Assembly: GCA_963555815.3 (NCBI GenBank)
Contig: CAUVWX020000001.1
Location: 1-64,000 of the forward strand
DNA: 64,000 nucleotides
Source of the DNA: a bacterium
GTDB lineage: Bacteria; UBA8248; JACPRG01; G963555815
Direction of reading: 5' to 3'
The translations under genes were made by a program, and so were the position numbers. Below the pieces are notes generated by a model. That model did not search any database, was not told the DNA's origin, and worked only from the letters and a program-made list of their open reading frames with translations. Position 1 is the stretch's first letter. The number at the start of each line of letters is the position of its first letter. Positions 43,006 through 48,681 of the stretch are shown here, in pieces.

Positions 43006-44154
43006 CTACCCCTCCTTCGGGGTCCCTTTTCGAAACGCCCCACAATAGTTGAAATAGAGTTGGAGTTGTCTTCGGTAGCGGTGCCAGATCCAGGGGACGT
43101 AGTCCTCCTCTTCAAGAGGGGAGAAACCAAGAGCCTCCAGATAATCCCTGGCCCCTGCGAGGGGGTCCGGCCCGCCTTGGCTGTAAGGTCCACCCGGCAC
43201 CTTGAAGGGGTCGGTGAAGAGGAGAACACCGTCCAGCCGAAGAACCCGGGCCACTTCCCGAAGGGGAGTCCTGGGGTGGACCACATCGACAATGTTGGCG
43301 CTCGCGGCAAGGTCAAGGGCCTCGTCGGCGAAGGGGAGATTAGTGCAGTCGGCCACGATAAGCTCCACATTGTCCACCCGCCCAACGGTGAGGGGTCTCT
43401 GCATAAAAGCGTTCCGGTGGCGCCTGACGAGATGCTGAATGGTGGGCCGGGGGCGGTGGAGGAGGACCGAGCGGCCAAGAAGGATGCTCGCAAAGGAAAG
43501 GTCCACGCCAAAAACCCCCTCAAAGGCCTCCGAAAGGCGGAAGACAAGCCCCCCCGGACCGCAGCCGCTATCCAGGGCGAGGTGCTTTCCCTTGGCATTT
43601 CTCTTCGCCATCTCGGCAAGGACGTCATAGGGGTTTCTGCCATCGAACTCGTCGAGGAACTTTCGAAATGAGGCGGGAAGGGGCGCTTCCGAGAGGATGT
43701 CGGCCACCCGGTCGTAGTGGAGGGTGAGGTTGACATCCATCTTGTCCTCGCGTCGCGCAAGGTCGTAGAGGTCAAAGTGCTGCTCCCGAAGCCACATGAG
43801 AAGATCCTCGGAAAGGCCCCCAAACATTCCCGCTTGGCTGATGATGGAAGGATACCGGGCGGCCAGATACTCTTTGGGCCGGTGAAGAAGGATAAGAACC
43901 CCCCCGATGACGGGATACCATCCCTGGCACTCATCGCACCGGACCCCTCCCTCCACAACCTCGTCCTGGTCTCCCTCGGCGGGCCGAAGGGGGATCTCAC
44001 CCCCGTGAAGAGAGAGGTGGCCGCCACACTTCCCTCGCTGTCTCACACGGGGGGCAGGGCAGACCAGGTATTTTAATTTCTCAATCTGCATGGGCCGTTC
44101 AGTGGTCCTTCGAGATTCATTTTGTTTCGTTCCCATTATGCCATAAGGGGACAA
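43006..44154 (-). CDS. class I SAM-dependent methyltransferase with N-terminal Trm112-like zinc module (start possibly 44091)
   Basis: YLVCP...CGGHL...EGGVRCDECQGWYPVIGGV; ALDSGCGPG; VADCTNLPF; EVARVLRLDG. Confidence 0.75.
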   Translation of the reverse strand: MSPYGIMGTKQNESRRTTERPMQIEKLKYLVCPAPRVRQRGKCGGHLSLHGGEIPLRPAEGDQDEVVEGGVRCDECQGWYPVIGGVLILLHRPKEYLAARYPSIISQAGMFGGLSEDLLMWLREQHFDLYDLARREDKMDVNLTLHYDRVADILSEAPLPASFRKFLDEFDGRNPYDVLAEMAKRNAKGKHLALDSGCGPGGLVFRLSEAFEGVFGVDLSFASILLGRSVLLHRPRPTIQHLVRRHRNAFMQRPLTVGRVDNVELIVADCTNLPFADEALDLAASANIVDVVHPRTPLREVARVLRLDGVLLFTDPFKVPGGPYSQGGPDPLAGARDYLEALGFSPLEEEDYVPWIWHRYRRQLQLYFNYCGAFRKGTPKEG

Positions 44155-45200: not shown

Positions 45201-45588
45201 GGGGCTGAAGCGGGGTCGATAAGCCGGGTTCTGTACCCCGTTAAAAACGGGGCCGCGGCCATCCCTCTGGGAGTCCGGTTGCCCGGACCCTCTAGCGGCC
45301 TACCCGGGGACATCGGGCGAGCCACCCTCAAACGTCCCCCTATTTGGCCTTGCTCCGGGTGGGGTTTGCCGAGCCGGCCGGTCTCCCGCGCCGCTGGTGA
45401 GCTCTTACCTCACCTTTTCACCCTTACCGGGTCCCGGATTCCCGGGACCTTAGGCGGTGTACTTTCTGTTGCACTTTCCCTGGGGTCGCCCCCGGTGGGC
45501 GTTACCCACCACCCTGCTCTTCGGAGCCCGGACTTTCCTCCCCAGGACCTTCCGGTCTTGAGGCGGCCACGTGACCCCCTTCAGCCCC
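45201..45588 (-). ncRNA. rnpB: RNase P RNA (class A)
   Basis: GAGGAAAGTCCGGGC near the 5' end, AGTGCAACAGAAAG, and ACAGAACCCGGCTTAT near the 3' end; termini GGGGCTGAAG / CTTCAGCCCC pair (P1), followed by a T run. Confidence 0.95.
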
Positions 45589-45657: not shown

Positions 45658-45750
45658 TCAAGGGATCTTGCGTGAGCGCTCACTTGTCAAAGACAGAGCT
45701 TCTTCGATGGCCTGGTTGGCAAGGCGGTCGGCCCAGGCGTTTTCGTCTGC
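45658..45750 (-). pseudogene. rnhA: C-terminal remnant of RNase HI
   Basis: Startless host-GC frame ADENAWADRLANQAIEEALSLTSERSRKIP* matches the N..AD.LA..A terminal helix of RNase HI; expected position between zinc-ribbon gene and rnpB. Confidence 0.65.
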
Positions 45751-45758
45751 ATATTAAT

Positions 45759-46694
45759 TTAATGTCTGCGCTTTACAGGTCGAATCTCCCAATGTTCGCT
45801 TAGCACTTTCTTGGTGGTCCGAAAATGCAACTTCGCTACCTTCTTCAACTTATCATCCCCATATTTCTCAACGAATTTTCTCGCAGATATTTCTACCTTC
45901 TCTGATGCTCCCTTCGGCAAGGTCATGTCATACTTCTTTCCCAAACATTTGAGCCGACTCAAGAACTCACTGCGGGCCAAGATCGACGCTGCTGCAACTG
46001 CTACATCCGATTCTGCTTTAGGCTCCTGATATAACTCAATCTTTTTCCCTTTCTCCATGAGCGCTTTTTTAACAAAACTCTTGTCACCAAACTGATCCGT
46101 GAACGCATAGTTACAAGGTACTTTCTCCAAGATATTTTCGATGACCCTAGCATGGCCCCATGCCAAAAGTTTATTAACATTCCTTATATTTTTATACAGG
46201 TCGTTATACCTTTCTGGTCCGATCGCCACGATGTTCCAGGAAACTTGGCCTTTCAGGAAACCCGAGAGCTTATCGATCTCCGTATCAGATACGCTCTTGC
46301 TATCTTTAACCCCAACCGACGATAATAAGTCTACGTCATTCCTGTCCATTTTCACCCCGGCGACGACCAATGGGCCAAAATAGTCACCTTTTCCAGATTC
46401 GTCGGTCCCGATCCACGTCGTCCAGTGCGATCTGTCCCAGTCGAGTTTCTGCTGCCCACCCCTTTTAAACGGATACTCAATACCCAGAATATCCCTTAAA
46501 AATTCCTCAATGTTAGGTCCCTGAATAACAATCTTTCCTTTTTTATAAAAAATGACTGTAACATTCTCCAAACGTGCCGCATAAATCGCATGGTCCTTCT
46601 CAAAAAAATTAAACTCTTTCAATGCAAGCAGATTCTTTATCTCCTTGCCTCGCTCTTTTGTAATAACCTCGGTGTATGTTTCAAATTGACTCAC
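45759..46694 (-). CDS. rnhC: ribonuclease HIII
   Basis: N-terminal TBP-like TVIFYKKGKIVIQG; IGTDESGKGDYFGPLVV; GVKDSK; DQF; KAE..VAVAAASILAR; LPKGA; VAKLHF. Confidence 0.92.
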   Translation of the reverse strand: MSQFETYTEVITKERGKEIKNLLALKEFNFFEKDHAIYAARLENVTVIFYKKGKIVIQGPNIEEFLRDILGIEYPFKRGGQQKLDWDRSHWTTWIGTDESGKGDYFGPLVVAGVKMDRNDVDLLSSVGVKDSKSVSDTEIDKLSGFLKGQVSWNIVAIGPERYNDLYKNIRNVNKLLAWGHARVIENILEKVPCNYAFTDQFGDKSFVKKALMEKGKKIELYQEPKAESDVAVAAASILARSEFLSRLKCLGKKYDMTLPKGASEKVEISARKFVEKYGDDKLKKVAKLHFRTTKKVLSEHWEIRPVKRRH

Positions 46695-46711
46695 AGCGTA
46701 ATAGCTCCTAA

Positions 46712-47770
46712 TTACGGCGCATGAAAATACTCACACGACTCACGTATCTCCGTGGCGATTCGCCCTATGCGATCTCTCGCAGCAGTCATGTCTGTGACCT
46801 CATGTGCCCCCTTCATGTCCGAATGCTGGTAAAAGTGTCGGCAAAATGGAACTTGTGCCTTTAAACGGCTCAAGTAAGCTTTGTGATCCTTACCTTGCGC
46901 GTAGAAACTCTTGAGGTCTTTTCCCCAAACTCCGCCAAAGTTCCACCCCTGACTCTCAACTTCTGCTTGTGTCGTCAATCTTAGAGAAATGAGGAGCCTG
47001 GTTAGATAGCCCTCAAAGCACTTTGCTAGTGGCATAACTACGTAAGAATACTCTGGCAAAACCAAAGGGACATCTAAAAGTGCAAAAGCCGTCTCGGCGA
47101 GCTTTTGATCATATTCCGAGAGAAAAGTGTATGCCCTTCCTAGAGAGGTTTCACACCTTTCTCTAGCCTGCTGCCAAAGTTCTGGTGTCAACAGTTTCGC
47201 GATCGTGTCAACGCTTTCAGGATCGTGCGATACAAACCGGGCTGCGATATATGAGGCGTTCTGTTGGCCCAGATTTTCGACTTTCGAGCATACTTCATGA
47301 AATAGGGGCTCACTAATACCCTGCACCAACACCGTCCCATTTTGGTAGTACGTCAGCGTAACTGTCGCAGGGCCGTCCGAAATGCGGAAGCGATATTTCA
47401 CAAACTTCGAATCCTCCTCCAAACTTGTCGAGCGGGGGTCCGAATTAAATGCGGTATGGACTGACGTTCGGAGGCCATCGTCGAGAATCTTATAGACATG
47501 GCAAGATGCCTTTCCCATCTCTGAGGTTCGGGCTGCAACCGATGCCCCAATGTGAGACTTCAATTCTTCAGCGAAAGGAGAGTCGTTCGGTTGAAGTTGG
47601 ATACGACTGTTTCGGTGAATAGTAACTGTCACGGTATCTGTTAGATTGCTAACCTGGAGTTTGACATCTCCGTTAGATAGGTCCTCTCGTTTAATCTGAT
47701 ACCCCTGGGGTCCGAACACTTCCTCAGTAAGCAGCCCAACTATCGTTTCAACTGGCAGGCGAAAAATCAT
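46712..47770 (-). CDS. RnlA / RNase LS-like HEPN endoribonuclease toxin
   Basis: 352 aa; two TBP-like repeats (VTVTIHRNSRIQLQ, VTLTYYQNGTVLVQG); C-terminal LPEYSYVVMPLAKCFEGYL helix and Rx4H motif RHFYQH, the architecture of RnlA. Confidence 0.75.
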   Translation of the reverse strand: MIFRLPVETIVGLLTEEVFGPQGYQIKREDLSNGDVKLQVSNLTDTVTVTIHRNSRIQLQPNDSPFAEELKSHIGASVAARTSEMGKASCHVYKILDDGLRTSVHTAFNSDPRSTSLEEDSKFVKYRFRISDGPATVTLTYYQNGTVLVQGISEPLFHEVCSKVENLGQQNASYIAARFVSHDPESVDTIAKLLTPELWQQARERCETSLGRAYTFLSEYDQKLAETAFALLDVPLVLPEYSYVVMPLAKCFEGYLTRLLISLRLTTQAEVESQGWNFGGVWGKDLKSFYAQGKDHKAYLSRLKAQVPFCRHFYQHSDMKGAHEVTDMTAARDRIGRIATEIRESCEYFHAP

Positions 47771-47826
47771 CTATCTGATTTCACTAACCGAATTGTGTTT
47801 CGAGGAAGGATTGAAACGGAGATTTC

Positions 47827-48591
47827 TCACGCCTTCGTGTGTTCCGCCGGGCGGGCGGACTCCACGGCTTTGGGGGTCTCCTCCGGCTCGTAGAGAAAGC
47901 GGTTACAGTAAGGACAGGAGTGGATCTCCTCCCCATGGCGGACCTCATAGGCGAGCTGCGGGGGGAGGCTTCGGTGACACGCGGAGCAGGTCTCTCCATC
48001 CAAGGAGACGACAGCTCTGCCTGTCCGTCCCTTTCGCACCCTTTCATATTCCTCGAGCCATGCAGGGTCGACATCGATGAGAAGCCGCTTTCGGTCTCCC
48101 TGGAGCCAGCTGAGGCGCTCCTGGATCCGCCCGAGCTCTTCCTCCTTGGCTTTCACCTCTGTGGCGCAGTGGACCCCTTTTTTCGCCACCTCGGCCTTCT
48201 TCTCCTTAAGCTCTTCCCCCAAGGTCTCGGCGCGCTCCATCAACTCCAGCACAGAGGTCTCGAGCTTATCGATCCGGCGTCCTTGGCCCTCGATCTCATG
48301 AAGGAGGGCGGTGTACTCCTTGTTCGTCTTCACTTCAAGCTGTCTTCCCCGGCTCTTCACAAGGCGCTCGTGCTCCGCCTCTGACTCGGTCTCCTGAAGA
48401 GCGCGCTTTTTCTCCGCCTCCCTGCGGTTGGTTTCCAGGGCCGACTCCTCGGCCTCGGCCTCCTTCACTGAAGCCCGAAGAACCTCAATGGCCTCGGGGA
48501 TCTCCTGACAGGAGATCTCCTGGGCTGCGACCTCTTCGTCAAGGTCGCAAAGGGTTCTCAAGAGGCGGATCTGAAAGTTCTTTGTCCCCAT
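47827..48591 (-). CDS. coiled-coil protein with C4 zinc ribbon (DUF164 family)
   Basis: VKTNKEYTALLHEI; CSACH...CPYCNRFLY. Confidence 0.9.
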   Translation of the reverse strand: MGTKNFQIRLLRTLCDLDEEVAAQEISCQEIPEAIEVLRASVKEAEAEESALETNRREAEKKRALQETESEAEHERLVKSRGRQLEVKTNKEYTALLHEIEGQGRRIDKLETSVLELMERAETLGEELKEKKAEVAKKGVHCATEVKAKEEELGRIQERLSWLQGDRKRLLIDVDPAWLEEYERVRKGRTGRAVVSLDGETCSACHRSLPPQLAYEVRHGEEIHSCPYCNRFLYEPEETPKAVESARPAEHTKA

Positions 48592-48608: not shown

Positions 48609-48681
48609 TGGGCCCACCTGGTCTCGAACCAGGGACCAACCGGTTATGAGCCGGTGGCTCTTCCAACTGAGCTATGGGCCC
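48609..48681 (-). tRNA. tRNA with CAT anticodon, probably tRNA-Ile2 (lysidine)
   Basis: GGGCCCATAGCTCAG...CCGGCTCATAACCGG...GGTTCGAGACC...TGGGCCCA; no initiator features; 3' end reads ACCCA. Confidence 0.88.

Follow-up and report, generated by a model that had tools for sequence, protein, structure and literature searches.

An RnlA-like HEPN gene paired with an RNase HIII gene in the place of a native RNase HI gene

The locus described here raises the question of why a gene for a protein resembling the HEPN ribonuclease RnlA should be followed directly by a gene for an RNase HIII (rnhC). It lies in a 64,000-nucleotide stretch of bacterial DNA, referred to below as the window (contig CAUVWX020000001.1 of assembly GCA_963555815.3, positions 1 to 64,000), from a genome that we call G000 and that is 95.7% complete. 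The RnlA-RnlB and LsoA-LsoB pairs of E. coli (RNase LS) are type II toxin-antitoxin systems directed against phage T4. A preliminary description of the window had proposed that here an RnlA-like toxin travels, in a new two-gene module, with a dedicated RNase H partner instead of an antitoxin. We find that the two genes form an acquired cassette that took the place of the native RNase HI gene, rnhA, and that their pairing is real and conserved.

A cassette in the place of rnhA

That the cassette is a newcomer follows from comparison with related genomes. The RNase HI gene comes next after a C4 Zn-ribbon gene in 6/6 genomes of the same family, and G001, from the same genus, is 94% identical on both sides of the cassette, differing only between window positions 47874 and 45748. 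The right junction falls at about 45748 and the left at about 47800-47874 (nucleotide identity with G001 stops at 47874), and an 87-bp remnant of rnhA (45661-45747) persists in the downstream flank. No further RNase HI was found in G000, which holds one more RNase HII-family gene, at C1:853647. Among 51 genomes of the phylum rnhC was found in one, G000 itself; the other 50 lacked it, and on these grounds the possibility that rnhC is an ancestral host gene was rejected. Because relatives hold rnhA in this slot, because the remnant persists and because rnhC is confined to 1/51 genomes of the phylum, we regard the cassette as having arrived recently and taken over the rnhA slot, and the locus as a clear example of a housekeeping gene exchanged for a foreign conflict cassette. 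RNase HIII has a substrate preference similar to that of RNase HI (PMC1950709), from which we infer that it may now be doing the housekeeping job of the lost rnhA.

The base composition is that of a foreign segment only by comparison with its surroundings. The guanine-plus-cytosine (GC) content is 0.460, where the genome averages 0.598, so that the "AT-rich islet" of the preliminary description is AT-rich in relative terms; equally low values occur in only 1/4154 overlapping 2-kb genome windows. An assembly chimera was ruled out, since single contigs of 3255 bp from 3 runs in 3 studies cover both junctions. One of these (X2) shows 0 differences from the window, whose source it may be; the others differ at 17 (X4) and 18 (X5) sites. 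The features of the locus are as follows.

48609..48681, minus strand: host tRNA in the flank, between rpoD and the Zn-ribbon gene
47827..48591, minus strand: host C4 Zn-ribbon gene, upstream flank (sequence comparison with G001)
47771..47830, minus strand: 19-codon leader, its GTG start overlapping the Zn-ribbon stop, as for rnhA in G001
46712..47770, minus strand: gene 1, RnlA/LsoA-family protein of 352 residues with predicted TBP1-TBP2-HEPN architecture; no upstream Shine-Dalgarno sequence seen
46695..46711, minus strand: 17-bp spacer between gene 1 and rnhC, with AGGAG at 46705-46709, 10 nt 5' of the rnhC GTG start
45759..46694, minus strand: gene 2, RNase HIII (rnhC) of 311 residues with a TBP-like N-terminal domain; D98/E99/D200/E228 intact
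45661..45747, minus strand: 3' end left over from the native rnhA (its final 29 codons), with 90% identity to rnhA of the same genus
45203..45582, minus strand: host RNase P RNA gene rnpB, downstream flank

The cassette is flanked by rpoD, the tRNA and the Zn-ribbon gene on one side and by rnpB on the other. Coordinates and spacer agree with the two co-oriented genes, 17 bp apart with AGGAG before the second, that had been described. The leader ends in a TAG that directly adjoins, in frame, the ATG of gene 1, and to judge from this arrangement translational coupling is possible. Promoter and terminator counts at the cassette are at chance level, and its edges show neither junction repeats nor terminal inverted repeats. 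Elsewhere in the window, positions 43006-44154 (minus strand) encode a 382-residue S-adenosylmethionine-dependent methyltransferase with a weak Trm112-like N-terminal match, which G001 has too.

Identity of the two proteins and recurrence of the pair

Gene 1 matches the Pfam RnlA models below their cut-off of 27 bits (26.3 bits for PF19034 and 24.8 bits for PF15935), which many of its homologues pass. A search of 1.84 billion representatives yielded 134 homologues, and a profile built from 49 sequences matches LsoA (1.3e-9) and RnlA (4.8e-6). In the profile alignment K250, E253, R311 and H316 of gene 1 align with R255, E258, R318 and H323 of RnlA, all four of which are essential there (PMC8266594); the last two delimit the motif RHFYQH (residues 311-316), the Rx4H motif of the preliminary description. 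The first catalytic position is thus a lysine at the RnlA R255 site, as in most homologues, and the [K/R]-E-R-H set is whole in 117/134 homologues, including all 22 of the fusions described below, the exceptions being mostly fragments. An AlphaFold2 model based on the 49-sequence alignment (pLDDT 93) superimposes on free RnlA (4I8O) with Z 20.5 over 314 aligned residues (root-mean-square deviation 4.6) and on RnlB-bound RnlA (6Y2P) with Z 13.9; it is a model of a monomer and so is silent on the dimer state. An earlier single-sequence model was poor (pLDDT 60), and its top Foldseek match was still RnlA. Profile, Foldseek and the 4I8O alignment, the comparison with RnlA/LsoA that the preliminary description had proposed, all point to RnlA. 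The model confirms gene 1 as an RnlA/LsoA-family protein with the full-length TBP1-TBP2-HEPN fold, including the two TBP-like repeats noted previously, and the profile alignment predicts its catalytic set. Gene 1 differs from RnlA and LsoA in a structural identity of only about 15%, in its lysine and in that no RnlB was found with it. Searches of PDB with gene 1 alone (phmmer) and of plasmids and phages (tblastn) gave no match, and viral contigs gave no confirmed match to the fusion-alignment query (the main alignment was not used there). Six loci (L069-L074) encode stand-alone proteins of about 160-190 residues that resemble the HEPN part only, amid housekeeping-looking genes.

Gene 2 has the sequence of an intact RNase HIII, as had been described. 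It clears TIGR00716, the rnhC model, at 235 bits (cut-off 161), its N-terminal TBP-like domain matches DUF3378 at 28.2 bits (cut-off 27), and the DEDE active site is intact. In these respects it resembles a housekeeping RNase HIII with the canonical N-terminal domain; it differs in that a low-GC cassette brought it in together with gene 1, in a phylum whose 50 other genomes are without it. Its nearest database matches after P0136 are RNase HIII proteins, 43-59% identical, some named from Melainabacteria.

The pairing recurs widely. Loci were sampled with one peptide pattern (35 GTDB loci and, of 153 metagenome matches, the best 80), and after removal of the six short HEPN-only matches, 0 of which had an RNase HIII, and of L077, which has no HEPN, 109 remained. 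RNase HIII lies directly downstream of the RnlA homologue in 98 of these 109 loci (26/29 full-length GTDB loci and 72/80 metagenome loci), many of which are close kin, so that the counts are not independent; chance adjacency was rejected on the basis of this survey. Seven of the 11 loci without a downstream RNase HIII are contig ends and four are real (L083, L084, L085 and L138). Among homologues of at least 468 residues, 22/26 are fused to an RNase HII/HIII domain, 21/22 of these exceeding the rnhC cut-off, and the DEDE residues are intact in 25/25 paired and 21/22 fused enzymes. This is the dedicated partnership that had been anticipated. Among the hosts for which the tool gave a taxon are Bacteroidota, Chloroflexota, Nitrospirota, Spirochaetota, Planctomycetota and methanogenic or ANME archaea.

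Two further features concern the RNase H partner. First, of the 18 near-length homologues that were scanned, 3 have an RNase HI at the N terminus, so that from sequence the class of RNase H is interchangeable in RnlA units (one protein, P0034, bore an RNase HI fusion label without a family match). Second, RNases HI and HIII reportedly exclude each other (PMC1950709), and 19/29 module genomes keep their own RNase HI elsewhere; judged by gene content, the RNase HIII partner is extra to the housekeeping RNase H. In L079-L081 RnlA and RNase HIII are separate genes, and the RNase HIII has 229 residues, lacks the TBP-like N-terminal domain and is not followed by a TPR-CSD gene, a gene discussed in the next section. 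The archaeal plasmid of Methanomethylovorans hollandica (L159 5767-6738, NC_019972.1) encodes an RNase HIII that comes nearest to the paired type; the plasmid has no annotated RnlA, and a SLOG-family gene adjoins that of the RNase HIII.

A third gene, RnlB and exchangeable effectors

In 73/98 linked loci the RNase HIII gene is followed by a third gene of about 430 codons; 16 loci stop at a contig edge and 9 are without it directly, so that it is present in 73/82 assessable loci. Its product combines TPR with a C-terminal cold-shock/OB-like domain, matching DUF7017 in 19/20 cases, S1CSD-TOTE-2 weakly in 15/20 and the PADLOC TPR-CSD model PDLC01170 in 4/4. In L101, one of these nine, a 344-residue open reading frame (ORF; 1925-2956), transposase-like by eye, splits the RNase HIII gene from the TPR-CSD gene. 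TPR-CSD is the hallmark of the TOTE systems, predicted conflict systems named for TPR, OB, TBP and Effector and reportedly described by Aravind, Iyer and Burroughs in 2022. According to a preprint (10.1101/2025.09.15.676423), TPR-CSD and TBP genes are shared with these systems, in which RNase H domains are often included, and the relatives of our cassette likewise join TBP-like domains, HEPN, RNase H and the TPR-CSD gene. Within the cassette, the TBP-like domain and the effector domains (HEPN and RNase H) of a TOTE system are present, according to the modelled fold, DUF3378 and TIGR00716; the Pfam TBP-TOTE model found no match in G000. A new two-gene module as first proposed is therefore not supported, since most of the relatives are three-gene TOTE-type loci. 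The pair belongs within the predicted TOTE kind, near the RNase H fusions noted in PMC3710099.

Is the RNase HIII a substitute for RnlB? The preliminary description found no room for an RnlB-type antitoxin, and we agree: the free flanks (56 bp upstream of gene 1 and 176 bp between rnhC and rnpB) hold no RnlB-sized ORF on the coding strand, and RnlB (PF15933) was found neither in G000, with a plasmid positive control at 4.7e-25, nor in 28/29 module genomes. This absence would suit an RNase HIII that acts as an antitoxin or guarded protein and silences the HEPN RNase until a phage inhibitor or protein-synthesis shut-off frees the toxin, as would the toxin-first gene order, the strong AGGAG of gene 2 where gene 1 has none, and the finding that in E. 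coli the inhibition of RnlA by RnlB also requires RNase HI (PMC5308261). Two loci speak otherwise. A plasmid of Bacillus sp. BR3 (L158 7054-10813, NZ_CP152438.1) has the order rnhC-TPR-rnlA-rnlB, and L161 (3-2951, in G056) has rnlA-rnlB-rnhC-TPR; since RnlB and RNase HIII stand together there, the RNase HIII is not just a stand-in for an antitoxin, and "instead of an antitoxin" is not supported in that wording, although the RnlAs of these loci are more distant and lie on another branch. The four loci that have the toxin without an adjoining RNase HIII count against a silencing role as well, and, given the 22 fusions, an antitoxin working by differential decay would be less probable. We consider an antitoxin or guarded protein distinctly unlikely.

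Other relatives point to exchange on the effector side. A 767-residue fusion followed by TPR-CSD (L077 1-2019, minus strand; L163 7913-10213, minus strand; L180) joins a pair of TBP-like domains to a Ser/Thr kinase and an RNase HIII; because the kinase here replaces HEPN, the effector is exchangeable on one chassis. This bears on a different view of the pair, in which both enzymes directly destroy the RNA of invader hybrids (replication primers and nascent transcripts), with no suicide and no switch needed. Hybrid targeting was proposed by Anantharaman et al. 2013 (PMC3710099) for RNase LS proteins fused to RNase H/TBP domains. Their fusions to caulimovirus-like RNase H resemble our pair in uniting HEPN with an active RNase H, and fusions to an N-terminal RNase HI exist among gene 1 homologues too; they differ in that our RNase H is of another class and stands downstream or C-terminal, RNase HIII entering the available part of that paper only as a TBP-domain comparison. 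Conservation of both active sites in the fusions agrees with a direct attack, whereas a chassis with exchangeable effectors suggests a sensor, and for E. coli RnlA an indiscriminate, growth-inhibiting mRNase activity is described (PMC3710099, PMC8266594). A direct attack by two nucleases seems to us very improbable.

The absence of a third gene in G000 can be read as a loss. According to this argument, the third gene of an RnlA-RNase HIII-TPR-CSD operon was lost as the operon inserted, and the remainder was kept because its RNase HIII does the job of rnhA, with gene 1 as a passenger. The frequency of TPR-CSD after RNase HIII (73/82), a junction only about 10 bp beyond the rnhC stop, the failure to find another RNase HI in G000 and the lack of a Shine-Dalgarno sequence before gene 1 are all as expected from such a history, and a loss is plausible given that TPR-CSD also accompanies distant RnlB-bearing RnlAs and the kinase fusion. 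In a maximum-likelihood tree of 28 chosen RnlA-like proteins, on the other hand, ten TPR-linked members and L056 form one clade (100/100) with gene 1 outside it, the base of the tree being poorly split, and gene 2 is not in the main clade of paired RNase HIII (SH 98). Because TPR-CSD also sits with the distant RnlB-bearing RnlAs, this tree does not separate an ancestral TPR-less state from loss. Pairs without TPR-CSD recur in other lineages (L040, L080/L081 and L056), and the strain variants show 0 stops and 0 frameshifts, with 6 nonsynonymous and 4 synonymous changes, resembling the 3 and 2 of the host Zn-ribbon gene, though these numbers are small. A truncated operon with a passenger toxin is, in our judgement, unlikely.

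How the cassette may act

The distribution of the module is patchy (the profile matches in 1/61 relatives of G054 and 2/401 genomes of the phylum of G045, centres included), and a defence-type neighbour was seen in 9/29 GTDB loci (L048, L052, L054, L055, L057, L060, L061, L063 and L065), a count taken from hand-picked subsets of 127 neighbouring ORFs (67 scanned by Pfam and 39 by PADLOC, 7 of the 39 from metagenome loci) and without a background control. In L048 (3006-10759) the three-gene module stands between type III Mod (methyltransferase) and Res (ResIII) genes. In L138 a PADLOC PDC-M16A gene stands on one side of the RnlA homologue and a TPR-CSD gene on the other, and the TPR-CSD family also matches PDC-M16B weakly. 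PADLOC DB 2.0.0, the catalogue in which the pair was looked up, has no model for either gene, gene 1 giving only a weak GajA match (E 0.03) and gene 2 none. In the literature the RnlA-RNase HIII pair was not found described, though the supplements of PMC3710099 or of the TOTE review may list the architecture, and no experimental study of the TOTE class was found.

We think it quite possible, if somewhat short of probable, that the cassette is a TPR-less anti-phage system of the TOTE type in which RNase HIII serves as a built-in activator of the toxin and co-sensor of RNA:DNA hybrids, not as its antitoxin. The reasons for favoring this reading are that RNase HIII occurs together with RnlB, is frequently fused to the toxin, is interchangeable with RNase HI and has kept its active site. 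Like E. coli RnlA, for which such a state is described, the HEPN protein would rest as an inactive dimer. During infection, the TBP-like domains, along with RNase HIII, would engage the rising hybrids (primers and R-loops), and this engagement would turn on mRNA cleavage by HEPN, leading to abortive infection or dormancy. RNase HIII, encoded in the cassette and of class III, would take the role that the host's RNase HI has in E. coli, where that enzyme associates with the NRD (TBP2) of RnlA and stimulates RnlA without RnlB (PMC5308261); the functional tie to an RNase H is one that our cassette would share. In G000 the removal of hybrids for housekeeping by RNase HIII may in addition stabilize the cassette. 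Everything here past gene identity, linkage and displacement is inferred.

Several observations weigh against this activator and co-sensor role. No TPR-CSD gene was found in G000 (alignment A4 and DUF7017) or at the locus; a lone S1CSD match in the genome was rejected as a candidate because it reads as Rho by eye, and with the right junction about 10 bp past the rnhC stop, truncation could have removed a third gene. L138 (92-4706) has TPR-CSD but no RNase HIII, and L083-L085 have an RnlA homologue with neither partner adjoining. The linkage is one-way, since neither partner lies within about 1.5 kb of 18/20 rnhC-like genes in the 401-genome phylum sample, and the kinship of the surveyed loci and their single-pattern sampling, like the uncontrolled choice of neighbours for the defence count, reduce the force of those numbers. 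Defence neighbours are absent at the window locus itself, and no experiments on any module member were found in the literature. For E. coli, Naka et al. (PMC5308261) could not demonstrate direct contact of RnlA with RNase HI in vitro, and how the toxin would be restrained without RnlB or TPR-CSD is left unexplained. A complex prediction for gene 1 with gene 2 (alignments A1 and A3) scored 0.00 in both runs and was used neither for nor against.

A stronger claim is that the two genes are a self-sufficient HEPN/RNase HIII immune module, with no RnlB or TPR-CSD, triggered by hybrid metabolism and hard to lose through its takeover from rnhA; we rate this as somewhat unlikely. Whatever the fate of that claim, the two-, three- and four-gene operons and the fusions, with or without RnlB and TPR-CSD, offer a natural series for testing the role of RNase H and, with it, for a first test of the TOTE class, and cultured sources are available in Reichenbachiella agariperforans DSM 26134 (L053) and in the Bacillus sp. 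BR3 plasmid. It is an open question (PMC5308261) why RNase HI is required in E. coli for the activity of RnlA and for its inhibition alike. If the stronger claim is true, the two-gene module would be a hard-wired form of this unexplained dependence.
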